From a virus (lineage: Duplodnaviria > Heunggongvirae > Uroviricota > Caudoviricetes): DNA of 10,133 nucleotides. Below are positions 1-10,133 of the stretch, piece after piece. Every line of letters starts with the position of its first letter. The stretch's first letter is position 1. The translations under genes and the position numbers were made by a program. The DNA is taken from IMG/VR virus record IMGVR_UViG_2695420701_000015; one strand, given 5' to 3'. Below the pieces are notes generated by a model. That model was not told the origin of the DNA. It saw only the letters and a list, made by a program, of their open reading frames with translations, and made no database searches.

Positions 1-35
1 TGAGACTAACTTTTGAGACTTCTAAGGGGAACATT

Positions 36-587
36 ATGGCGATACTTGGATATTGCAGGGTGAGTACAGATGACCAATCCATCACTAACCAGCAAATGCA
101 AATTGAAGAGGCAGGGTACAACATTGCTAAATGGTTCACTGATGAAGCTGTCAGTGGTTCTGTCAAAGCTTCTTTAAGAAACGGTTTCAGCAGACTATTA
201 GCTTATGCACGAGAAGGTGACACCGTAGTTGTGGTAGCTGTAGACCGTCTTGGACGTGACACAATTGATGTGTTATCAACGGTTAAAGCGCTACAGGCTA
301 AAGGTGTGACAGTTATCAGCCTTAGAGAAGGGTTTGACTTATCAAGCGCTATGGGTGAAGCAATGTTAGGCATTATGTCAACGTTGGCACAGCTTGAAAG
401 AAGCTTGATAGCAGAGCGTAGAAAGGCTGGTATTGAACGTGCTAAAGCTGAAGGGGTACATATGGGAAGACCTGTAAAAGCTTCTTCAGAGGCTGTACAG
501 ATGCTTATTTCACAAGGTAAAACGAGGTTGCAGATTCAGGAAGAGCTAGGAATCTCTAGAGCAACTTATTACAGACTTGCTAAATAA
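36..587 (+). CDS. Small serine recombinase (resolvase/DNA-invertase family), 183 aa
   Basis: Complete ORF. N-terminus MAILGYCRVSTDDQ carries the catalytic-serine motif of small serine recombinases; VDRLGRD motif; C-terminal HTH-like [13 protein letters not shown]-like AAGGGGA about 6 nt upstream of the ATG. Confidence 0.9.
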   Translation: MAILGYCRVSTDDQSITNQQMQIEEAGYNIAKWFTDEAVSGSVKASLRNGFSRLLAYAREGDTVVVVAVDRLGRDTIDVLSTVKALQAKGVTVISLREGFDLSSAMGEAMLGIMSTLAQLERSLIAERRKAGIERAKAEGVHMGRPVKASSEAVQMLISQGKTRLQIQEELGISRATYYRLAK

Positions 588-776
588 GTTACTGAATAGT
601 TACATGGATGTAGCTGATATTTGGCTTTTTTGCCAAGGGGGTCACATAGCTGGTGTGACGGGTACTAAACACGTATACATCATGAGGTAGATTCTACCGA
701 ATCAACTAGACAGATATTTTCGAAGATTCGGGGAAGATGAGATTCAAAGAGGGCTAGTCATTTTTTATAAAAAATT
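198..776 (+). repeat. Copy A of the recombinase-3'/downstream module (3' part of the gene plus about 190 bp downstream)
   Basis: Direct repeat of 777-1356. The first 80 bp downstream of the stop (588-667) are identical in all three copies and contain palindromes TTGGC-T6-GCCAA and GTCACA-N7-TGTGAC. Copy A has a distinct 44-bp patch (668-711). Confidence 0.85.
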
Positions 777-1164
777 AGCTTATGCACGAGAAGGTGACAC
801 CGTAGTTGTGGTAGCTGTAGACCGTCTTGGACGTGACACAATTGATGTGTTATCAACGGTTAAAGCGCTACAGGCTAAAGGTGTGACAGTTATCAGCCTT
901 AGAGAAGGGTTTGACTTATCAAGCGCTATGGGTGAAGCAATGTTAGGCATTATGTCAACGTTGGCACAGCTTGAAAGAAGCTTGATAGCAGAGCGTAGAA
1001 AGGCTGGTATTGAACGTGCTAAAGCTGAAGGGGTACATATGGGGAGGCCTGTAAAAGCTTCTTCAGAGGCTGTACAGACGCTTATTTCACAAGGTAAGAC
1101 GAGGTTGCAGATTCAGGAAGAGTTAGGAATCTCTAGAGCAACTTATTACAGACTTGCTAAATAA
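777..1164 (+). pseudogene. 5'-truncated second copy of the serine recombinase gene (C-terminal about 129 codons only)
   Basis: nt 777-1164 align to nt 200-587 with 5 substitutions (4 synonymous, 1 Met->Thr). The catalytic N-terminal domain is absent; ORF-track ORF 808-1164 starts at an internal Met. Confidence 0.8.
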
Positions 1165-1356
1165 GTTACTGAATAGTTACATGGATGTAGCTGATATTTG
1201 GCTTTTTTGCCAAGGGGGTCACATAGCTGGTGTGACGGGTACTTAGCAGCTACAGACATCTGTCAGATATTTTTGAAGATTCGGGGAAGATGAGATTCAA
1301 AGAGGGCTAGTCATTTTTTATAAAAATTTTCAGACTCTGAAAAGTTACTGTACAGA
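777..1356 (+). repeat. Copy B of the recombinase-3'/downstream module (tandem, head-to-tail with copy A)
   Basis: Junction at about 774-777, where ...TTTTATAAAAAATT joins AGCTTATGCACGAG (gene position about 200). Downstream part 1165-1356 matches 3491-3684 almost exactly. Confidence 0.85.
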
Positions 1357-1508
1357 ATATATACAGATATCTTTAAAGTATCTGTAAAAACTTTTAAGAT
1401 AAAAGATAGATATCCCAGAAAGGATATCCGTTTAGAAAACCTGTTAAGTATCTCTTAAAAGAGAGTAAACCTTGTCAAGAGTGATTGCAATAAAAATTTT
1501 TATTTCTT

Positions 1509-2171
1509 ATGTCAATTGAGCATATTTTAATCGGGAAGCATCATGGGGGTTCTGATTACTGGAGAACTCCATTTTTGTTATTTAAGAACTTACACCGTGA
1601 ATTTATTTTCAGTCTAGATGGTGCTGCAACTGAGCATGACACGCTGTTACCACGATTCACCGATGATATAAGCCGTCAATCATGGGTTAGTGAAAAGGTC
1701 TTCTGTAACCCGCCGTACAGCGATATTCCGTCGTTCCTCTTAAAAGCGTCTGAAGCGGATTTAGTAGCTTTCCTGATACCGCATAGAGCCAACACCAGCT
1801 ACTGGCTTAGGCACATTTACAGCAATAACCACTGTCATGAAATCCGTATTCTTCATCGTGCAGTTAAATACCTTCCACCAGCAGGGCATAACAGGCTTAC
1901 TATTAGGTCACCGTTTCCAAGTGCAGTCGTTGTTTTTAAAAAAGAACCACGTAAGCATGAAATTACACAGATGGTTTGCTGTGCTGATACATTGCTACCG
2001 TTAACCATCATTAACCGTGGTGGACTAAGAGGAAGACCCACCATTTACCCACCTGAGACGCTCGACAGCTTCATAAAACTATACAGGCAAGGAAAACCCA
2101 TTAAGTACATTGCAGATGCTCTCAGAATGCCTCTGAGCACGTCATACAGGATTGCTCAAAGGTTGAGCTAA
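1509..2171 (+). CDS. DNA N6-adenine methyltransferase, phage Dam-like family, with C-terminal HTH-like extension (220 aa)
   Basis: Motifs DYWRTP, LDGAA and FCNPPYSD (NPPY catalytic motif of amino-methyltransferases) in the order typical of the phage Dam family. C-terminal about 45 aa (KPIKYIADALRMPLSTSYRIAQRL) resembles a resolvase-type HTH. No adjacent restriction endonuclease gene is visible. Confidence 0.75.
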   Translation: MSIEHILIGKHHGGSDYWRTPFLLFKNLHREFIFSLDGAATEHDTLLPRFTDDISRQSWVSEKVFCNPPYSDIPSFLLKASEADLVAFLIPHRANTSYWLRHIYSNNHCHEIRILHRAVKYLPPAGHNRLTIRSPFPSAVVVFKKEPRKHEITQMVCCADTLLPLTIINRGGLRGRPTIYPPETLDSFIKLYRQGKPIKYIADALRMPLSTSYRIAQRLS

Positions 2172-2275
2172 AATTCTCATAAATATGGTCATTTACAAGA
2201 CAGGTGATTCAGATGTTAAGAAGTATCCCCGTGAACAATAAATGACCAATCAGTAATCATTCTGTGAAATAATTG

Positions 2276-2304
2276 TTGCAATTTATAATCACATCTGTTA
2301 TAGT
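2276..2304 (+). promoter_or_regulatory. Candidate sigma70 promoter (TTGCAA-17 bp-TATAGT)
   Basis: Hexamers and 17-bp spacing read directly. It lies about 230 bp upstream of the 2535 ORF, so the assignment is tentative. Confidence 0.3.
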
Positions 2305-2534
2305 TTCTATATGGGCTGATAAAAAAGTTCATGTCTTGAAGTGGTAACACTTGGGGAGGTGTCAGATGGTTGGCGTATATTAACCTCTCATTCAGGGTAT
2401 ACCTCAGCGTTTTAATCATCGTACTGTTTCAGGCATGGACTTCTTTATCAGTCCATCAATCCCCCAGATATTTTAATCACACAGGCTAATCGGTTTTATC
2501 CGGTTGGCCTTTTCACGTATGAGGTAATTTATGA

Positions 2535-2924
2535 ATGTCTAAATATAACCCAAATCAGTTTTATAAATTTGATGTGCGAATCTCTCAACTTTCAGAAGAA
2601 ATTAACGCAGCAGCAAGATTGATTTATATGGTCATGGTCCATAGCTGTGACTTCTATGAAGAGAAATACAAATCATATTCACCAAGTATTGACCATCTCG
2701 CTTATATGGCTGGTGTATCAAAGAGAACAGCAATCAGAGCCATTGAGACACTTGAGAAACACGGTTTAATTCAGGTGCAAAAGAATCAGGGGCGTCAAAG
2801 CACTTATCGTGTATTCACACTGGATGATAAGCCGGAATTACTTGTAAGACCTACATCACAGGAAGTTGCAGCCTCAGTAAGACAAAATGACACCACTACC
2901 AGTGACAAAATGTCATGGGGGTAG
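2535..2924 (+). CDS. Winged-helix DNA-binding protein, possible replication-initiator or regulator N-terminal part (129 aa ORF)
   Basis: Segment LAYMAGVSKRTAIRAIETLEKHGLIQV is HTH/winged-helix-like. GAGG lies 10 nt upstream of the ATG. The ORF stops at a TAG (2922-2924) between two 15-bp repeats, and the coding signal continues in another frame. Confidence 0.5.
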   Translation: MSKYNPNQFYKFDVRISQLSEEINAAARLIYMVMVHSCDFYEEKYKSYSPSIDHLAYMAGVSKRTAIRAIETLEKHGLIQVQKNQGRQSTYRVFTLDDKPELLVRPTSQEVAASVRQNDTTTSDKMSWG

Positions 2925-3138
2925 TGACAAAATGTCACCCGTGTTAGAGTTAGATAAGTTATTAGATAAAACATTAGATAATAATATTACAGATAAGAAT
3001 AAAGAGACTGGACTTAATGATGATATTAAAGAAGATGACTTTCTTTCTTTGGATGAATTAAATGATTTTCTCTCTATGAATGAATCTGACCTTGAAGTAA
3101 GCTCTAAAAAGGGTGATGCTGCCAACTTACTGATTTAG
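2887..3138 (+). pseudogene. Acidic C-terminal continuation of the rep-like gene in a shifted frame, 3'-truncated by IS1
   Basis: ORF 2887-3138 re-reads the second 15-bp repeat as SDKMS, the same peptide ORF 2535-2924 reads from the first repeat. Its last 9 codons (GDAANLLI-stop) are encoded by the IS1 left inverted repeat, so the native 3' end is missing. Confidence 0.35.
2901..2937 (+). repeat. Two exact 15-bp direct repeats AGTGACAAAATGTCA, 22-bp period, each containing the palindrome TGACA-N3-TGTCA
   Basis: Read directly: copies at 2901-2915 and 2923-2937. The 7-bp spacers differ (TGGGGGT versus CCCGTGT). Confidence 0.9.
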
Positions 3139-3450
3139 TGTATGATGGTGTTTTTGAGGTGCTCCAGTGGCTTCTGTTTCTATCAGCTGTCCCTCCTGTT
3201 CAGCTACTGACGGGGTGGTGCGTAACGGCAAAAGCACTGCCGGACATCAGCGCTATCTCTGCTCTCACTGCCGTAAAACATGGCAACTGCACGCATTATG
3301 GGCGTTGGCCTCAACACGATTTTACGTCACTTAAAAAACTCAGGCCGCAGTCGGTAACCTCGCGCATACAGCCGGGCAGTGACGTCATCGTCTGCGCGGA
3401 AATGGACGAACAGTGGGGCTATGTCGGGGCTAAATCGCGCCAGCGCTGGC
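3112..3450. mobile_element. IS1 remnant: intact left terminal inverted repeat, insA with internal deletion, start of insB; right part absent
   Basis: GGTGATGCTGCCAACTTACTGAT at 3112-3134 matches the IS1 left inverted repeat as I recall it. The following sequence encodes the InsA N-terminus ([41 protein letters not shown]). About 85 bp appear to be missing after 3291 relative to canonical IS1 (from memory). IS1-like sequence stops at 3450. The segment is visibly more GC-rich than its flanks. Confidence 0.8.
3167..3334 (+). pseudogene. insA: insA remnant (GTG start), frameshifted by the internal deletion
   Basis: Translation from GTG at 3167 gives the InsA N-terminus and then diverges after ...KTWQL into [14 protein letters not shown]-stop. 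The InsA C-terminal peptide [21 protein letters not shown] is encoded in a different frame. Confidence 0.7.
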
Positions 3451-3451
3451 A

Positions 3452-3684
3452 TAGGAATCTCTAGAGCAACTTATTACAGACTTGCTAAATAAGTTACTGA
3501 ATAGTTACATGGATGTAGCTGATATTTGGCTTTTTTGCCAAGGGGGTCACATAGCTGGTGTGACGGGTACTTAGCAGCTACAGACATCTGTCAGATATTT
3601 TTGAAGATTCGGGGAAGATGAGATTCAAAGAGGGCTAGTCATTTTTTATAAAAATTTTCAGATTCTGAAAAGTTACTGTACAGA
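3452..3684 (+). repeat. Copy C of the module: last about 13 codons of the recombinase gene plus downstream region
   Basis: TAGGAATCTCTAGAGCAACTTATTACAGACTTGCTAAATAA and the following about 190 bp match 549-587 and 1165-1356. It begins abruptly inside IS1-derived sequence. Confidence 0.85.
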
Positions 3685-4630
3685 TTTTGCACAATCCTAC
3701 CAAACCTCATAGTTGATTCGATTAGAAGCTAATCTCATAGAAAGCTCTGTAGCGAGTTTTAACCCCATTTTTAGGGGTAACCTATAGGGATGTACTAACC
3801 ACCTTAAAATAAAGGGGTAAAATCGCTTAGAATGCGTTACAGAGCGTCTGAGAAGCCATATTCACAGATTTTACTAAAACCTCAGACTTCTAAGTAGTCT
3901 TTTAACAGGAGGGGTTCCCCTATGGTCACATATCCCCTCTCTTTCCACTAAGTAAGCCTTAGCAGCACCTAAGCAACAATTGACTAACAGATTCGGTAGA
4001 GTCTATCTCATAGGTCAACTTCATAAACTCAGAGCTAAGTTACCTTGAAAGATTCTACCAAGAACTACACAGGTGTTATTTAGTCTGACTGTGAAGGGAT
4101 ATTTAACGGGAGAAGAGATACGATATAACCCGAAGGGAGAGTATCATCTTAACAATTATCTTAAGAATAAAACTGAAAAACTCTTAACAGATAACCACCT
4201 AGAAAGAAGGGAACGATAAGACCAGAGGTAGTGACCTGTTAAACAGGCTGTTTCAAAGTCTCTTAAAAGTCTGTTAAGTAAGGTCATGTGAACAATCTTA
4301 CCATTTTGTCAATGCTTTTGTCTTTGACCTAAATCAATAAAATGTATCGTTTGATATGCTTTTAAACAAAATAGCTAAAAAATCTTTTTTTAGAGGGGCG
4401 CTTCGCTTGGGGTCACTATGAATGATTTTTCTCTCGCTAAGAGAGCGCTTACAGAGGTCTTTCAAATCTCAATAGCCAGCCGAGGAACACAGGAAACCGA
4501 GGGAAGAAAAACTATTGTGATTACCTTGAACAAGGTCTGTAAAGGTCGTTTAAGAGGTCGGTTAAGAAAGGAGCTTCCCTCTCTGGGGTTATCGCTCTTC
4601 TCCCGATTAGTGGGGCGGTTAAGGGGGCTT

Positions 4631-4812
4631 GAAGTTATCTGTGAAGGTACTGGACAGTCTTATATATTGGGTGATTACAACTCGTTGAAAAATAAGCATT
4701 TTTAGAAGTTACTGTTAAGGTTGCAGAGTTGTCTGTGAAGAGACTTGTCAGTTCTCTATATATGGCTAATTACAACTTATTGAAAAATAAGAACTTTTAG
4801 AAATTACTGTCA
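4631..4812. repeat. Two imperfect tandem direct repeats, about 94-bp period
   Basis: TCTGTGAAG...TTGAAAAATAAG(C/A)A(T/C)TTTTAGAA(G/A)TTACTGT occurs twice, starting at 4638 and 4732, roughly 80 percent identical by eye. Confidence 0.8.
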
Positions 4813-4945
4813 GAGAGGTGAATGCTTGATAGACACAGCTTTCCGGTTCTGTCAAGCTATTTTTTAATAGATAGCACAAAATGCTAAAGACACCCCTGTA
4901 CCATAGACTTCTATCTGTCATCTCGTGCAGGGGTTTTGAAGGAGT

Positions 4946-5122
4946 TTAACGGGGGTCTGTGTGGTCGTTATCCTTAAGGTCAAGCGTCCATGTACGACCG
5001 AACAGTTTAAAGACAACAAGCACTCTGACGAGGACGTAGCGAAGTAGCAGGCCTGCAATCAGCCCAATACCTCCACCAGTCCATACATCAGGTGACCCCA
5101 GCTCAGGAGGGAGATTTACCAT
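4946..5122 (-). CDS. Candidate small membrane protein, 58 aa (MVNLPPELGSPDVWTGGGIGLIAGLLLRYVLVRVLVVFKLFGRTWTLDLKDNDHTDPR)
   Basis: Internal Met of ORF-track ORF 4946-5278 (-). AAGGA RBS 6 nt upstream on the minus strand. One predicted transmembrane helix with a charged C-terminus. The palindromic element 5137-5234 lies immediately upstream. Confidence 0.35.
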   Translation of the reverse strand: MVNLPPELGSPDVWTGGGIGLIAGLLLRYVLVRVLVVFKLFGRTWTLDLKDNDHTDPR

Positions 5123-5136
5123 TAGTTTTCCTTGTA

Positions 5137-5234
5137 AGACGCTCTCAATCGCATTCTGACACAAAAAGTACCTGACCTTATGAGTTGACCTGAAGAGGTC
5201 GTTTAACTCGTTACAGGGCGATTGAAGAGGTCTG
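5137..5234. repeat. Palindromic repeated element, copy 1 (terminal inverted repeats AGACGCTCTCAATCGC / GCGATTGAAGAGGTCTG)
   Basis: Both terminal arms are shared with copy 2 at 6765-6886; the central part differs. It sits immediately upstream of the RBS of the minus-strand small ORF. Confidence 0.8.
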
Positions 5235-5336
5235 TGTGCAATGCAAAATATGCGACCAAATACATAGCCACGCCTCATATTTTACTCTCCCCATAAACCC
5301 ATTATACCACAGATGTTACGAAAATGTTAAAAATAC

Positions 5337-5365
5337 TTGACATTAGTCTTTGAAAATGCTAATAT
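5337..5365 (+). promoter_or_regulatory. Candidate sigma70 promoter TTGACA-17 bp-TAATAT
   Basis: Consensus -35 and near-consensus -10 with 17-bp spacing, about 50 nt upstream of the 5417 ATG. The -10 is followed by TGTATATAT, as at the 7320 promoter. Confidence 0.55.
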
Positions 5366-5416
5366 TGTATATATAGGTTAACAGAATAATAACATCTTCT
5401 GAGAGTCAGAACATGA

Positions 5417-5974
5417 ATGCAGTATTCAGAATTTAGAGCGATGCTTCAGGCATCAAGAGAACGCAACAAGCACAACTCCTACGCTTACACAAACAACCCC
5501 ACCAGCTACGAAGTCCCAACCTTTAGCAAATCCGAACGTAAGAACATTGAAGCGGTCATTCGTAGCATTACGCCACGAGACAGATTTATGCCAGTACGCA
5601 AAACAACAAAGAATACTATTAAAAATTATCTGGCTAACTTTGACAGTTACGAGCAGTTACCAAGCAAGCTTGATGATGTTTTTATTGGGTTCTGTAGAAG
5701 TGAAGGCCACCCGAAATACAACAAAAAACTATTTTATCTGCTAAAGAATCTTGACGAAATTAACGCATCCACCGTGACAAATCATCTTCAGCGACAGGCA
5801 ACCAGACTTAGTTACGAATTACCAAGCGATAAATATTGCGCTTTGCTTGCTGTGATGTGCGCGAAATTAATTGGCATTGTTGAACATCATATTGCCGTTG
5901 GGAATATTGAGCCAATGGAAAACGAGCAACCAGATTTCGAGTTTGACCCCTATTTAGTTACAGAGGATTTTTAA
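5417..5974 (+). CDS. Hypothetical protein, 185 aa, acidic C-terminus
   Basis: Long ORF downstream of the candidate promoter; first gene of a run of tightly abutting ORFs. No family recognised. Confidence 0.7.
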   Translation: MQYSEFRAMLQASRERNKHNSYAYTNNPTSYEVPTFSKSERKNIEAVIRSITPRDRFMPVRKTTKNTIKNYLANFDSYEQLPSKLDDVFIGFCRSEGHPKYNKKLFYLLKNLDEINASTVTNHLQRQATRLSYELPSDKYCALLAVMCAKLIGIVEHHIAVGNIEPMENEQPDFEFDPYLVTEDF

Positions 5975-6253
5975 ATGAATAAACACACATTAACCAGAGT
6001 TACAAAGACAGCCTTTGATGAACTGAACCGAATCAAAAACATTACAGGTCTGCCACACTCAGCAGTGATGAAGCTTGCAATTAACCGTGATATTAACGAA
6101 CAGGATTTGCTTAATAGTCGCTTAGAGGCTGCAAGACACCATATCAGGATTAAGCAAGATGACCTTGATAGTCTGAAATCCTTAAATGCTTTTGGACTGG
6201 ATTTAGCAAGGTTACTAAGTATCAAAATTCACAAACTGTCTCAGGAGGTCTGA
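5975..6253 (+). CDS. Hypothetical small protein, 92 aa
   Basis: ATG immediately follows the upstream stop (TAAATG); GAGGA lies upstream. No family recognised. Confidence 0.65.
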   Translation: MNKHTLTRVTKTAFDELNRIKNITGLPHSAVMKLAINRDINEQDLLNSRLEAARHHIRIKQDDLDSLKSLNAFGLDLARLLSIKIHKLSQEV

Positions 6254-6255
6254 TT

Positions 6256-6528
6256 ATGAAGCAATGGCGAGATGATATTAAACGGTTCTTTGCAACTTAC
6301 TTCATGATTAATTATGAGACAGGAATGCTTGAATGGATTGATGGTGGAGAGGTTAAGACAAGAGATGATGCTTACGGTAATCCAATGATTCGTTATGGCA
6401 CTCGTGATTATTATCTGAAGTATGTCATCTGGTTTTTGCATCATGAAGTTCAGGCAACTAAAAAGATTATCTTCAGGGATGGTAATAAAAGAAATTGCCA
6501 CCCAAACAATTTACTCCTGGAGATTTAA
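6256..6528 (+). CDS. Small protein with degenerate HNH_3-like motif, 90 aa
   Basis: AGGAGG RBS 7 nt upstream. C-terminal half (YLKYVIWFLHH...IIFRDGNKRNCHPNNLLL) resembles the HNH_3/NUMOD4-type pattern (HRxVW...IDHIDGNxxNNxxxNLRL), but the DH of the catalytic motif is replaced by FR. Confidence 0.6.
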   Translation: MKQWRDDIKRFFATYFMINYETGMLEWIDGGEVKTRDDAYGNPMIRYGTRDYYLKYVIWFLHHEVQATKKIIFRDGNKRNCHPNNLLLEI

Positions 6529-6728
6529 TGTTATGTATTAAATTCGAATATTTGACAGATAAAATGATTAAGCATGTATCAGACCTGCTCATCAAAGAAG
6601 GTGGTTTCGGTGATGCTTGCAATCCAAAAGATATCTTCATTCATGCCACCAGCCCAAACGCAACACTAAAGACAGCAGTTACAGCGGAATGGTTTGAACG
6701 AAATAAAGCGGAATTAGGTTATTGGTAG
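6528..6728 (+). CDS. Hypothetical small protein, 66 aa (ATG start; the ORF track extends to 6495 via a TTG)
   Basis: ATG overlaps the upstream stop (TAATG), indicating translational coupling. Confidence 0.55.
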   Translation: MLCIKFEYLTDKMIKHVSDLLIKEGGFGDACNPKDIFIHATSPNATLKTAVTAEWFERNKAELGYW

Positions 6729-6764
6729 TCCGAGACTTTAAGAGAAATTAGAAAAACAGCTTAT

Positions 6765-6886
6765 CAGACGCTCTCAATCGCATTCTAACGCAAAAAACTA
6801 TCTTATTTTAGGGTGGGTAATACCACTGTACAGGCTACCCCTGAAAAAGACTGTTTAGCTCGTTACAGAGCGATTGAGGAGGTCTG
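6765..6886. repeat. Palindromic repeated element, copy 2 (CAGACGCTCTCAATCGC ... GCGATTGAGGAGGTCTG)
   Basis: Same terminal arms as copy 1 and an internal palindromic core. It ends about 20 nt before the ATG of the 6907 gene on the plus strand. Confidence 0.8.
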
Positions 6887-6906
6887 GTAAAAAGGAGATT
6901 TTAAAA

Positions 6907-7230
6907 ATGAACGAATATGAATTACAGATTTTCATTGATAGCGACACTGCTATGATGGTGCAGGCTTTCGCTGATTCCGGTGTATCAATTGACCTTGATA
7001 AATTACTAAAGCTAATGGCTGAAAACTCAGAAGAAATTGAAGACTTTATTCAGGAAATTGAAACTGGTGAACCGCGTTTTATGTTTCCTGTTACCGACTC
7101 AAACATGAAGCGTCTTATTATCGAAGAAACGAACAAATACAGCGTTAGCCCTGAAAAATATCTCAAGGCGGCTATAGCAATTTTGTATAGCGATAATATT
7201 CTGGTGACGGATTCGAAGGTGGTGCATTAA
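6907..7230 (+). CDS. Hypothetical acidic small protein, 107 aa (ATG at 6907; the ORF track start at 6874 is a TTG inside the repeat element)
   Basis: AAGGAG RBS 9 nt upstream of ATG 6907. Asp/Glu-rich. Confidence 0.7.
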   Translation: MNEYELQIFIDSDTAMMVQAFADSGVSIDLDKLLKLMAENSEEIEDFIQEIETGEPRFMFPVTDSNMKRLIIEETNKYSVSPEKYLKAAIAILYSDNILVTDSKVVH

Positions 7231-7295
7231 TGGAATTGGTGATTATCTGTTTTGTATTGATTGGTATGATTGCAGGTGCATCTATTAAAGTATAA
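7230..7295 (+). CDS. Candidate 21-aa hydrophobic peptide MELVIICFVLIGMIAGASIKV
   Basis: ATG overlaps the stop of the 6907 gene (TAATG). Almost entirely hydrophobic, roughly one transmembrane span. Too short for the ORF track. Confidence 0.35.
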   Translation: MELVIICFVLIGMIAGASIKV

Positions 7296-7319
7296 ATGTT
7301 ACCAATCTGTTAAAAGCTG

Positions 7320-7348
7320 TTGACAAACAACCTTGAGCATGACATAAT
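7320..7348 (+). promoter_or_regulatory. Candidate sigma70 promoter TTGACA-17 bp-CATAAT
   Basis: Consensus -35 with 17-bp spacer, followed by TGTATATATGG as at the 5337 promoter. Confidence 0.5.
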
Positions 7349-7357
7349 TGTATATAT

Positions 7358-7385
7358 GGGGAGAGCAATTCTCTCTTATTTTTTC
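7358..7385 (+). terminator. Intrinsic-terminator-like hairpin (GGGAGAG-CAATT-CTCTC followed by TTATTTTTTC)
   Basis: Short stem followed by a T-run, 63 nt after the stop of the 7230-7295 ORF. It could terminate the 5417-7295 operon or attenuate transcripts from the 7320 promoter. Confidence 0.5.
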
Positions 7386-7516
7386 TTTCAATAATCCGAT
7401 GGATGGATATTCTGAGTTGGAAAGGTGCAATGCTTTTCGTCCTAGCCTTTCAGGTTGGTCTGAGAGGCTATCTCAAAAAGTCTTTGTTCATTCATTATTG
7501 AATCCTTTACAGCTTT

Positions 7517-7544
7517 GCCCTAATCATGAGTTAGGGCTTTCTTT
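7517..7544 (+). terminator. Hairpin GCCCTAA-N7-TTAGGGC followed by TTTCTTT
   Basis: Perfect 7-bp stem plus T-rich tail, read directly. Confidence 0.4.
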
Positions 7545-7613
7545 AAGAGTTTTTAAACAGAGCTTTTAAAGAAAGTTTTCCTGAAACTTCGTTAACGTTA
7601 TAAGCAAACCTCC

Positions 7614-7646
7614 AAAGCCCTTCACAGATTATGTTTAGGGCTTTTC
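7614..7646 (+). terminator. Hairpin AAAGCCC-N17-GGGCTTT with T-rich tail
   Basis: 7-bp stem read directly; shares the TTAGGGCTTT motif with the 7517 hairpin. Confidence 0.35.
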
Positions 7647-7717
7647 TTAATAGAGCATCTTTAATAAATCGTTAAGTCATCTTCTAAGTGTATTGGCGTT
7701 GAAGGTGCTCTATTAAG
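7646..7717 (+). promoter_or_regulatory. Perfect 12-bp inverted repeat CTTAATAGAGCA / TGCTCTATTAAG separated by 48 nt, just upstream of the RBS of the 7745 gene
   Basis: Read directly. The right arm ends 14 nt before AGAGG (7732-7736). Function unknown; could be an operator pair or a leader RNA stem. Confidence 0.5.
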
Positions 7718-7744
7718 AAATAACCACACTTAGAGGAAATTATA

Positions 7745-8455
7745 ATGACAAACGATTTATATATTAACGGTAAAAAGGTTGATAGCTTCGGAGACTGGTC
7801 ACCACAGGGTGAACATCCGCTACATACTATTCAGCGTCAAGAGCATGACAAGCGCATTGAGCTTGAGCAAGAGCTAAAGATGTCACCAAAGGTAATTTCC
7901 TTTGTGTCTCCTGAGCCTCAAGAAATGCCTGATATCTGCAAAACTGAAGCACTATTTGAGCTTGAGCGTGAATATTACCCAGCTTTAAAATCACAGCGTC
8001 TTAGACTTGATGTCGCTTACGATGCTGTTAAGAACTTCGAAGAAACCTCGAAACCTTCAGAATATGATATTGCTTACGAGATTAAGTCAAACCCGTTTAT
8101 CTATTATGAAGGAAACTTTAATGATGGTTTTGGTACAGCGATTGAAGACGTTCCTAAAGTTCTTCAAAGTATCCCTGAAGGGTTCCGGTTAATTGATGTC
8201 AGACAAGCATTAAGGGGTTCTGGTCAATTTATTCTGATGACTGATAAAACAGATGAAGAGATTCTTCAGTTAGCTGAAGCTAATTTGACTAAGCATTATT
8301 CCGGTAAACTGGATAAGTTAAAGCAAAAGCTTAAAAAAGAACTTGATACTATGAAAGAACTTGTTAGTGAATATGAGTCGCAGAAGAAGATTGCTTTGAT
8401 GGCTGATATTGAGCAGTTAACGAAGATTTCTCAGAAGTATAGCAAGGCTGTTTGA
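7745..8455 (+). CDS. Hypothetical protein, 236 aa, helical and charged C-terminal third
   Basis: AGAGG RBS 8 nt upstream. No family recognised. C-terminus rich in K/E/L, suggesting coiled coil. Confidence 0.75.
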   Translation: MTNDLYINGKKVDSFGDWSPQGEHPLHTIQRQEHDKRIELEQELKMSPKVISFVSPEPQEMPDICKTEALFELEREYYPALKSQRLRLDVAYDAVKNFEETSKPSEYDIAYEIKSNPFIYYEGNFNDGFGTAIEDVPKVLQSIPEGFRLIDVRQALRGSGQFILMTDKTDEEILQLAEANLTKHYSGKLDKLKQKLKKELDTMKELVSEYESQKKIALMADIEQLTKISQKYSKAV

Positions 8456-8477
8456 TTATGAATTAAAGAGGTGATTA

Positions 8478-8687
8478 ATGTTTGAAGAACGTTTAGAGAC
8501 TATTCGGTCTGTTTGTGAAAACTTAAAGTTACAAACTAAGCCAGCCTTAAGAATTAAAAACAAACGTCAAGTTATCACCTCACACAAACCAAAAACACGC
8601 AAGATTCCAAAGTGGTGTATTGACCGTATTCCTTCTGATGCTCAAATCATAGGTGAAACGGAATTACATTATCTTGTCCGACATTAA
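8478..8687 (+). CDS. Hypothetical basic small protein, 69 aa
   Basis: AAGAGG upstream of the ATG; Lys/Arg-rich; followed by a terminator. Confidence 0.6.
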   Translation: MFEERLETIRSVCENLKLQTKPALRIKNKRQVITSHKPKTRKIPKWCIDRIPSDAQIIGETELHYLVRH

Positions 8688-8710
8688 AAAAGAATTGGTT
8701 GGGTAAATAC

Positions 8711-8753
8711 GGGGAGAGATTATCGAGTGACATCGGTAGCTCTCCCTTTTTTT
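8711..8753 (+). terminator. Rho-independent terminator (GGGGAGAG ... CTCTCCC followed by T7)
   Basis: GC-rich inverted repeat (loop about 21 nt) immediately followed by TTTTTTT, 24 nt after the stop of the 8478-8687 ORF. Confidence 0.65.
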
Positions 8754-8843
8754 GTATGTGTGCTACGTGAAATCTGTAAAGCTAATACCCACACTGAAAA
8801 ATAGAATTTACGTACAACACGCTTAAAGAGGTGAAAAATATGA

Positions 8844-10121
8844 ATGGCACAATTTAAAGTTGATGATTTTCTGATTGAGTTAAGTTTTAACTCTCAGAAA
8901 GTTTTAAAAGGCTTGGAAAAAGCCGAGAAACAAACGATGCAGGTAGCATCACGAATTGAGAAGCGATTGAATAAGTCGTTTAGAGTTAATCCTACGCCTT
9001 TAAATGATTCTCTCAAACTAATGGAAAGAAATGTCGATAAAACTGTTTCCAAGATTGAGCAGCGTCTTAAAAACACTAGAGCGTTTAAGATTAAAACTGA
9101 AATTGAGGATACTTTAAAGCCACTTAGACAACCAAGACAGCCACGAATTAGCGGAAGCAGAGCAATCACAGCAGCTTACTCAGCGAATATGAGCAAGCTT
9201 CGTGACTTTAATCCTATGCTTGAGAAGTATTTTAAAAGCCAGTATTACAGCTTAAGCAGTAAATCCAAGACACTTGGAAACGAAACTTTTAATCGTGAGT
9301 TAGCAAAGTTAAATCAGTCTCTTCGTGAAACACTTTCTAAGTTTAACAAGACCACCAGCAAAAATAATCACAGTGAAAATGCTTCAAATAGTCTGGATGT
9401 ATTAGCTACGAGTGCAATCAAAGCAGGTACAGCCATTTATAGTTTTCAGACAGCCTTAGAAGCTTACAGGCGGATTATGGAGGTTGGTCTGAAAAAAGAA
9501 GCATCACAACGAGCGGCACAATTCGTTTTAGGTGATGAAGGTGCTAAACGAGCTACAGAATTTGTTAAGAATCTTGCTGATAGTAGTGGTGTAGACCAGA
9601 TTGAAACATTAAGCAGTTTTGCTAAGTTTTCCGCTGGTGCTGGTGATATGAATGCAGACCAGAAAGAATCCTTATTTTCTAATGTGATTGGTACATCCAG
9701 ATTAATGGGGCTAAGCACCGATGAAATTAACGGGATTTTAAAAGCTTTCGAGCAGATGGCATCTAAAGGAAAGATTCAGGCTGAAGAGCTACGCGGTCAA
9801 TTAGGTGACAGAATGGCAGGTGCTTTTCAGTTATTTGCCAGAAGTCTTGGGATGACTACGGAAGAATTAGACAAGGCCATGAAAGACGGTAAGGTTCTTT
9901 CTAAAGATGTTCTTCCTAAAGTATCCGCTGAAATGGGAAGGATGATTGATAAAGCTGGTGGATGGGAAAAGATTATTAACTCTACTCAGACGCAGTTAGG
10001 CCGCTTAAGTAATTCATGGAATAATAATCTGGCCTTAATGTTCGATGGTTCACAGGAAGGTTTAACAGACTTTACAAGGTCACTGACTAATTTACTTAAT
10101 TCACTAAATAGCTGCGCTTAA
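8844..10121 (+). CDS. Tape-measure-domain protein, 425 aa
   Basis: AAAGAGGTG RBS 10 nt upstream. Residues about 290-380 (GILKAFEQMASKGKIQAEELRGQLGDRMAGAFQLFARSLGMTTEELDKAMKDGKVLSKDVLPKVSAEMGR) match the conserved phage tail tape-measure N-terminal-type domain pattern as I recall it. Predicted helical N-terminal half. Complete ORF with TAA at 10119-10121. Confidence 0.8.
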   Translation: MAQFKVDDFLIELSFNSQKVLKGLEKAEKQTMQVASRIEKRLNKSFRVNPTPLNDSLKLMERNVDKTVSKIEQRLKNTRAFKIKTEIEDTLKPLRQPRQPRISGSRAITAAYSANMSKLRDFNPMLEKYFKSQYYSLSSKSKTLGNETFNRELAKLNQSLRETLSKFNKTTSKNNHSENASNSLDVLATSAIKAGTAIYSFQTALEAYRRIMEVGLKKEASQRAAQFVLGDEGAKRATEFVKNLADSSGVDQIETLSSFAKFSAGAGDMNADQKESLFSNVIGTSRLMGLSTDEINGILKAFEQMASKGKIQAEELRGQLGDRMAGAFQLFARSLGMTTEELDKAMKDGKVLSKDVLPKVSAEMGRMIDKAGGWEKIINSTQTQLGRLSNSWNNNLALMFDGSQEGLTDFTRSLTNLLNSLNSCA

Positions 10122-10133
10122 TACCGCTACACT

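Follow-up and report, generated by a model that had tools for sequence, protein, structure and literature searches.

Does this locus carry a true tandem copy of the 3΄ half of a recombinase gene, and with it the trace of an exchange between related mobile elements? In this work, we have analysed a stretch of 10,133 nt, hereafter the window, in which an intact small serine recombinase gene and its downstream module (copy A) are followed by a second copy of the 3΄ half of the gene and of the module (copy B) and, further on, by a shorter third one (copy C). The initial annotation had described a head-to-tail repeat of positions 198–776 and 777–1356, and as letters in the window this repeat is present: 197–666 and 774–1243 align without gaps over 470 nt with 5 mismatches (467, 470, 502, 521 and 546). 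The alignment is followed by a variable block (667–712 in copy A, 1244–1265 in copy B), in which the copies differ by the presence or absence of 24–26 nt and by substitutions, after which the match resumes, 713–776 corresponding to 1266–1329. A codon check confirmed that the 5 coding differences had been counted rightly, as 4 synonymous pairs (GGA/GGG, AGA/AGG, AAA/AAG and CTA/TTA) and a sole nonsynonymous one (ATG/ACG, Met156Thr). All of them fall inside 80 nt (467–546), and this patch is flanked by 270 nt and 120 nt of identity. Copy C (3452–3684) equals positions 1124–1356 of copy B save for one mismatch, at 1335/3663, and both copies are identical over 1124–1334 and 3452–3662. Their left boundaries are unlike, since copy B begins at recombinase nt 198 and copy C at recombinase nt 547.

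The public source of the window was reached through an exact-sequence look-up of the truncated 118-aa ORF of copy B, which is on record in only 7 contigs, all of them NCBI drafts of the CX, FT and FU accession series. Record CXDJ01000152.1 (L028; GCA_001260415.1; 10133 bp) corresponds to the whole window: 10131 positions are identical, and the sole differences are positions 774 and 3451, where the record has an N and the window an A. Gap characters therefore stand at both novel junctions. Since an N sits at 774, the arrangement of copies A and B is a scaffold join over a gap and not a sequenced junction, so the contiguity of the repeat described above does not hold; and since there are N's at both 774 and 3451, the 10133-bp ‘contig’ is a scaffold of three pieces (a, b and c). 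We conclude with high confidence that the window is a draft-assembly scaffold whose 3 contigs, linked by single-N joins, belong to two Shigella sonnei islands that are siblings and are named alpha and gamma here, and that the apparent tandem copy is an assembly artefact and not a real feature. The assembly collapse or expansion against which the initial annotation had itself warned is in effect what the N's at 774 and 3451 reveal. The features of the window are collected in Table 1.

Table 1. Features of the window, with the scaffold pieces, the gaps between them and the island type of each segment
Feature	Position	Strand	Evidence or remark
Scaffold piece a: small serine recombinase gene and alpha-type downstream module	1..773	+	Allele typing, identity to relatives
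Scaffold gap	774..774	.	N in the public record, A in the window; supposed junction of copies A and B
Scaffold piece b: starts at recombinase nt 198; Dam, HTH and IS1 in its alpha part	775..3450	+	Typing at diagnostic sites
Scaffold gap	3451..3451	.	N in the public record, A in the window; junction of IS1 and copy C
Scaffold piece c: gamma island from recombinase nt 547 on	3452..10133	+	Colinear with L017 and closed L033, L037 and L038 at 99.4–99.9% identity
Small serine recombinase, 183 aa, resolvase/invertase family, intact	36..587	+	PF00239 (2e-42) and HTH_7 (4e-5)
Conserved non-coding module, alpha type, with extra 26-nt block	588..776	+	Homologous to the ORF-free region of Felix O1-like phages
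26-nt block GAGGTAGATTCTACCGAATCAACTAG, holding the palindrome GGTAGA-T-TCTACC	681..706	+	Natural presence/absence polymorphism among islands
Copy B: 3΄ 390 nt of the gamma-island recombinase gene	775..1164	+	99.8% identity to the intact gamma recombinase gene of closed L033, L037 and L038
118-aa ORF within copy B	808..1164	+	Called ORF
Downstream module of copy B	1165..1356	+	Gamma type to 1274, alpha type from 1335
Dam-family N6-adenine methyltransferase with C-terminal HTH_7 (alpha island)	1509..2171	+	Domain search; exact protein 369 nt past the single recombinase gene in closed genomes
HTH_36, replication-initiator-like gene, frameshifted (129 aa), broken by IS1	2535..3111	+	Domain and phrog search; same IS1 insertion in closed L045
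Left part of IS1, without IS1 nt 181–255 between 10-nt direct repeats	3112..3450	+	Piece b ends inside this multicopy element
Copy C: gamma locus of copy B written again	3452..3684	+	Single mismatch 1335/3663, the first alpha/gamma diagnostic site
Type map: gamma	1..466		
Type map: alpha	467..773		
Type map: gamma	775..1274		
Type map: same in both islands (60 nt)	1275..1334		
Type map: alpha	1335..3111		
Type map: gamma-colinear	3452..10133		99.4–99.9% identity

Where do the three pieces come from? For allele typing, the alpha (L040) and gamma (L032) islands of one closed genome, CP104423.1, were taken as the reference. Piece a, which ends in ...TTTTTTATAAAAA just left of the N at 774, has gamma-type alleles at 138, 194–197 and 332 and alpha-type alleles over 467–773; it is 100% identical to L025, L026 and L030 and 99.87% identical to closed L016. 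Piece b starts with TTAGCTTATGCACGAG right of the N at 774 and ends in ...CGCCAGCGCTGGC left of the N at 3451. It is gamma-type at 1044, 1047, 1079, 1098, 1123 and 1244–1274, that is, at every diagnostic site of copy B. Piece c starts with TAGGAATCTCTAGAGC right of the N at 3451. It comprises 41 nt from the end of the recombinase gene, the module and an ORF-poor region, together with genes for 185, 92 and 90 aa (the last an HNH gene), one for 236 aa and a tape measure gene that is truncated. A single switch of type can be delimited from left and right; it lies within piece b, in the 60 nt at 1275–1334 that are the same in both islands. The junction of the HTH gene and IS1 at 3111/3112 is contiguous in a closed genome (L045).

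The initial annotation was right to derive copy B from a related, functional recombinase gene instead of a recent duplication in situ: copy B carries the gamma allele of the intact 183-aa recombinase gene throughout its diagnostic sites. Copies B and C, in turn, evidently represent one and the same gamma locus twice, because they are identical over their common part and diverge only at 1335/3663, the first diagnostic site past the shared stretch. The first base of piece b and that of piece c directly follow differences between the recombinase copies (194–197 and 546, respectively), the pattern that a graph node holding sequence common to two copies should give. The idea that one module boundary has been joined to three different upstream sequences thus reflects where assembly pieces start, past differing recombinase sites, and the boundaries of copies B and C are not even the same.

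The closed genomes of S. sonnei, which come from other isolates than that of the window, have the two islands at separate loci. The alpha island adjoins yecE and consists of the recombinase gene, the module with the 26-nt block, Dam and HTH (L016, L040–L047), and the gamma island adjoins yciI and consists of the recombinase gene, the module without the block, the ORF-poor region and the truncated tape measure gene (L032–L039). In CP104423.1 they lie at 2.54 Mb (alpha; 2,536,066–2,548,728) and 1.83 Mb (gamma; 1,829,864–1,850,421), in opposite orientation and ~700 kb apart. Both sibling islands are ~11 kb long, and their copies are 98–100% identical over about 780 nt. There is one intact 183-aa recombinase gene per island in the closed S. 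sonnei chromosomes shown here and in the N-free drafts (L017, L020, L022–L025), and the tandem arrangement was found in none of these gap-free assemblies. The ends of the scaffold pieces thus lie in a multi-copy repeat or at its edge, and the loci that they join are separate in finished genomes. The five differences between copies A and B are exactly the alpha/gamma differences between the two intact genes. They are mostly synonymous because they are allelic differences between two intact paralogous genes, and no duplication is needed to account for them. S. sonnei, then, has two paralogous islands, and their two recombinase genes, each intact, diverge mostly at synonymous sites.

In the closed genome CP045932.1, the alpha recombinase gene (L016) has gamma alleles at 138 and 194–197 and alpha alleles at 332 and from 467 on. 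Judging from this tract, the sibling islands do appear to exchange sequence, and such exchange neither needs nor supports a duplication. An exchange event at the junctions of the window is another matter, and we discard it: both junctions are N gaps.

The sister drafts and a search for the junction itself lead to the same answer. The piece that starts with TTAGCTTATGCACGAG, at recombinase nt 198, stands behind a single N after five different left sequences in the sister drafts, with the N at 6512 in L027, at 774 in L028, at 6618 in L029, at 2963 in L030 and at 2606 in L031. The neighbours of N+TTAGCTTATG... are therefore inconsistent among related assemblies, and chromosomal flanks are duplicated in some scaffolds; L019, for example, has the flank yecN–yecE twice within one record. 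The scaffolds L018, L019, L021 and L026 hold 2–3 recombinase copies, always around N's. No match in one piece to the segment spanning the A/B junction was found in any of the 5426 complete E. coli genomes, and its flanks occur in 289 of them, solely as two separate pieces. A 34-mer across the junction gave no match in IMG/VR or in the JGI metagenomes. At most 66% of the window is covered in any one place among the complete E. coli genomes, and every one of these that has the island has a single recombinase copy per island. The physical tandem copy is thereby contradicted, both by the N gaps and by the single copies of the closed genomes, and the recombination hotspot that had been suggested at the 3΄ end of the recombinase gene turns out to be a product of scaffolding, in which sister drafts attach an identical piece to five neighbours by way of an N. 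A plasmid origin was also considered and rejected: neither 1–1500 nor 3690–10133 had a megablast match in PLSDB. In the phage collection, the only match of the window was a Felix O1-like stretch of 47–96 nt.

How could such a scaffold have arisen? The N's were directly observed, as were the allele types, the single copies of closed genomes and the variable neighbours in sister drafts, whereas the exact behaviour of the assembler and the scaffolder, as follows, is inferred. The short-read assembly of a S. sonnei isolate would have failed to resolve two ~11 kb islands that share a near-identical recombinase gene and module, leaving contigs 1–773, 775–3450 and 3452–10133, each with a start or an end inside the shared repeat. 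Read pairs from the alpha locus may then have connected piece a with the part of piece b that holds Dam, and those from the gamma locus may have connected piece c with the part that holds the recombinase sequence. The gaps implied by these links would be zero or negative, with overlaps of about 550 nt and about 210 nt; in SSPACE, a single N denotes a zero or negative estimated gap. The overlapping ends, being non-identical or already used, would have been left unmerged and abutted with a single N. Written consecutively, they would give what looks like a tandem duplication of 577 nt (copies A and B), plus the third partial copy (C). On this explanation the real chromosome has two separate loci, alpha at yecE (recombinase gene, module with the 26-nt block, Dam and HTH::IS1) and gamma at yciI (recombinase gene, module without the block, ORF-poor region and tape measure gene).

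This course would fit the pipeline that combines Velvet, SSPACE and GapFiller, in which joined contigs receive N gaps and greedy tools are able to make false joins (Page et al. 2016, PMC5320598). The dataset of that paper has an entry for the sister assembly CXAD01 (L025), given there as S. sonnei under ERP001362, which is probably also the project of the window. The prefix CXDJ was not found among the supplementary entries covered, and the same pipeline is presumed for the window from the accession series and the sister records.

Could the order of the pieces be real after all? The scaffolder had read-pair links between them, and the shared repeat explains these links, as real adjacency would too. 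If the window were a structural variant, illegitimate recombination would have put the 3΄ half of the gamma recombinase gene behind the alpha module, a second event would have fused the truncated IS1 to gamma recombinase nt 547, and the N's would be single uncalled bases. The read-pair links do run in scaffold order, the closed L016 alpha recombinase gene with its gamma alleles at 138 and 194–197 testifies to exchange between siblings, and the genome of S. sonnei, with its many IS elements, is prone to rearrangement. We nevertheless consider such a variant very unlikely, given that both N's stand exactly at the homology switches, that the same right-hand piece is N-joined to five left sequences in the sister drafts, and that the arrangement occurs in no closed genome or N-free draft, its junction being missing from the 5426 E. 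coli genomes, IMG/VR and the metagenomes. The identity of copies B and C in their overlap is, moreover, what is expected of one locus used twice.

It is hardly credible, either, that the pieces are true neighbours separated by larger unsequenced gaps, as in a tandem array of islands at one attachment site, with the a–b–c order correct. Some 700 kb separate alpha from gamma in closed S. sonnei genomes, where the two are oppositely oriented, the neighbours of the piece vary among the sister drafts, and the repeated yecN–yecE flank in the single record L019 is inconsistent with a simple array, even though the scaffold order comes from paired reads and several drafts do string recombinase copies together. 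A more elaborate version, a tandem array of three islands followed by deletions, was dropped once the N's had been found. The patch-like clustering of the five coding differences (467–546) might also recall a tandem duplication of 197–773 in situ, one copy of which was later gene-converted from the sibling island. The same patchy pattern separates the intact alpha and gamma genes of closed genomes, where no duplication is needed, and the junction is an N, so that we give this possibility next to no weight. An artefactual join of contigs from two sibling islands is the explanation that we retain.

Two sequence motifs near the repeat boundaries were considered as causes of the repeat and rejected. 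A crossover by the recombinase at the palindrome TTTTCAGA-N-TCTGAAAA (1327–1343) does not account for copies A and B, because the join lies at the edge of the palindrome and not at its centre, and is itself an N. Template switching, or microhomology, had been considered for the AGACTA at 192–197, beside the repeat boundary, and was discarded when this motif was recognised as the normal gamma-island allele of closed S. sonnei; it is missing at 192–197 from complete E. coli genomes.

What are, then, the recombinase and the module? The protein has the N-terminal catalytic resolvase domain and the C-terminal HTH of small serine recombinases, matches phrog_125 (DNA invertase), and finds in the PDB the gamma-delta resolvase (6e-31, full-length alignment) and Gin (1e-22). 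In the module, the 26-nt block is present in L013, L014 and L015, in the alpha islands and in phages Moogle and JH2, and is absent from L006, L007 and the gamma islands. Among eight sequences compared, the hairpin at 641–659 shows one compensatory pair, and conservation of the first module palindrome as a palindrome was not seen. No tRNA or known RNA was found in the module (ARAGORN; Rfam at E≤1), and a scan of 540–1520 found no sigma-70-like site and no plus-strand terminator. The right end of the module (about 1357/3685) coincides with the point at which two forms of the island, I and II, diverge across the island family, an observation that again neither requires nor backs a duplication.

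This family is present in at least 435 of the 5426 complete E. coli genomes, and also in E. albertii. Its islands are ~11 kb long and occupy the sites yciI|tonB, yecE, ymdF|wrbA and mdtG|lpxL; each opens with this recombinase and closes with genes for a tape measure protein, a baseplate-type protein and a large serine recombinase. Both forms begin with the recombinase and a ~240-nt module, which is followed in form I by the Dam methylase and the replication-initiator-like HTH gene and in form II by an ORF-poor region of ~1.9 kb. A closed genome, CP022457.1 (Shigella sonnei 2015C-3566), carries a form II island at 99.8% identity. The module (547–776) aligns to an ORF-free region of ~1.6 kb in Felix O1-like phages, with 67% identity over 230 nt in JH2 and 73% identity over 149 nt in Moogle, and a 47-nt stretch of it that includes the palindrome GGTAGA-T-TCTACC is identical in many of these phages. 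The best phage matches of the island tape measure protein are the tape measure proteins of Felix O1-like phages (31% identity, residues 1–478, E 1e-58), and the 256-aa baseplate-type protein of the island is 70–72% identical to an Ounavirinae protein that adjoins the tape measure gene where annotated.

The islands thus are small integrated elements that bring an integrase and a replication gene of their own and combine these with structural genes and cis sequences related to those of a prospective helper, as satellites do. From these sequence relationships we tentatively suggest, as a possibility that we would not favour on present evidence, that the islands may form an undescribed ~11 kb family of integrated satellites of the Felix O1-like (Ounavirinae) virulent myophages, that the module could be a cis-acting site mimicking that of the helper, for regulation, replication or packaging, and that siblings might exchange sequence around it by homologous recombination. 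Full-text literature searches returned no paper linking satellites with Felix O1-like phages. The island is not the O157 cryptic prophage CP-933C/Sp7, an identification that we considered and rejected since the latter is a P4-like remnant. The link of the island family to Felix O1-like phages, through its tape measure gene, its baseplate-type gene and its non-coding DNA, may merit a study of its own, as a lead and not as a result of this work.

The tandem copy itself carries no biological weight. The replacement of N by A in the window hides the scaffold gaps, so that overlapping contig ends mimic tandem duplications, and it also lends these ends a ‘selection-like’ divergence. Had the N's not become known, a recombination hotspot would have been reported falsely, and windows taken from scaffolded drafts should retain or mark their N's.

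How does the locus compare with known systems? The recombinase is an ordinary relative of the gamma-delta/Tn3 resolvases and the Gin/Hin invertases, with PF00239, HTH_7 and the N-terminal motif ...YCRVSTDDQ.... In Tn3, the res site lies upstream of the recombinase gene, whereas the conserved module of the window lies downstream of it. The islands resemble phage satellites (P4-like elements, PICI/cf-PICI and PLE) in their size of ~11 kb, their own integrase, their replication-initiator-like gene, their few helper-related structural genes, their helper-like non-coding DNA and their several chromosomal sites. They differ from P4-like elements, PICI and PLE in that their integrase is a large serine recombinase and their only structural genes are those of a tape measure protein and a baseplate-type protein, both related to Felix O1-like virulent myophages.

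The joins in the window, for their part, resemble the false joins of scaffolding and gap filling (PMC5320598), with N's at abrupt switches of homology inside a two-copy repeat. They also recall the mis-resolved paralogous mobile elements of de Bruijn graph assemblies, in that the boundaries of pieces b and c lie just past recombinase differences and the alleles switch within a 60-nt identical stretch. The usual symptom of such mis-resolution is collapse, with too few copies, whereas here it is expansion, one locus being written twice.

The window (1-10133) belongs to a family of islands of about 11 kb present in E. coli, Shigella and E. albertii (L004, L005, L006 and L008-L010), in which at least four chromosomal sites are occupied. 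One end of each island carries a small serine recombinase; a tape measure gene, a baseplate-type gene and a large serine recombinase lie at the opposite end. The tape measure protein, at 31% identity, and the baseplate-type protein, at 70-72%, have their nearest relatives among the proteins of Felix O1-like (Ounavirinae) phages. The family may represent an undescribed satellite of virulent myophages; full-text literature searches turned up no paper that connects satellites with Felix O1-like phages.

At two positions of the window, 774 and 3451, an N of the public record has become an A; this substitution masks scaffold gaps, and false junctions are possible in further windows as well. In the closed genome CP045932.1, the small serine recombinase gene (rec) of the alpha island (yecE site, form I; L016, 10001-10552) was compared with that of the alpha locus of a closed S. 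sonnei genome (L040, 5081-5632), and carries the alleles typical of the gamma island (yciI site, form II) at 138 and 194-197, a pattern that suggests gene conversion between sibling islands. In two drafts free of N the flanks are exchanged, giving yciI-rec-Dam in L022 and yecE-rec-form II in L017. An inversion of about 700 kb through recombination between oppositely oriented islands would fit these arrangements, and so would additional chimeras.

Among the alpha-island genes, the Dam-family methyltransferase ends in a C-terminal resolvase-type HTH_7 domain, which is an unusual fusion. The HTH_36 replication-initiator-like gene codes for 321 aa in the E. coli islands; in the S. sonnei alpha islands a frameshift leaves 129 aa, and in the window the gene is also broken by IS1. 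IS1 nt 181-255, a stretch flanked by two copies of the 10-mer GGCAACTGCA, are missing from the IS1 fragment. In closed genomes (alpha locus L045) the IS1 inserted at this site is complete. The fragment is either a true deletion variant or a further assembly artefact.

In the gamma-island part, the tape measure ORF is 425 aa long, versus about 690-710 aa for its counterparts in E. coli islands, and its stop codon lies 12 nt before the end of the contig; the closed S. sonnei genomes have a gene encoding a DDE_3 transposase domain directly after this ORF. Immediately upstream of the tape measure gene, all islands keep a 236-aa protein that gave no match in Pfam, PHROG or NCBIfam, nor by tblastn against 50,697 phage records.

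Features of the window and, where named, of phage Moogle
Feature	Position	Remark
Module after rec	547-776; further copies 1124-1356, 3452-3684	non-coding
26-nt block with palindrome GGTAGA-T-TCTACC	681-706; inverted copy 3981-4011
26-nt block in phage Moogle (L012)	about 3010-3035 and 3560-3585
Dam-family methyltransferase	1509-2171
HTH_36 gene	2535-3138
IS1 fragment	3112-3450
ORF-poor region of form II islands	3694-5416	~1.7-1.9 kb
Tandem repeat	4633-4810	95 nt, 1.9 copies; inside the ORF-poor region
Motif CGTTACAGAGCG.TGAG..G plus flanks	3827-3893, 5131-5234, 6760-6886	three copies, ~30-100 nt, direct and inverted
236-aa protein	7745-8455	'transposase' in RefSeq
Tape measure ORF	8844-10121

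The module is better conserved than rec itself (in E. albertii, 76% for the rec region and 82-87% for alignments that include the module), and its homologue in Felix O1-like phages is their large ORF-free region (L011, 2730-2956; L012, 2900-3047). Many of these phages carry an identical 26-nt block, which natural island alleles may have or lack. In the second phage copy the palindrome reads GATAGA-T-TCTATC, both arms being altered symmetrically, and this suggests that it is a dimer-binding site or a hairpin.

The three motif copies precede gene blocks, and may be repeated operator/promoter regions or recombinase sites. Segment 4389-4749 is present in L038 (a closed gamma locus) and L017, and is missing from the closed gamma loci L033 and L037. 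With its 95-nt tandem repeat and its many short GTTAAG/GTTACT-like motifs, the form II ORF-poor region recalls the ORF-free region of the phages.
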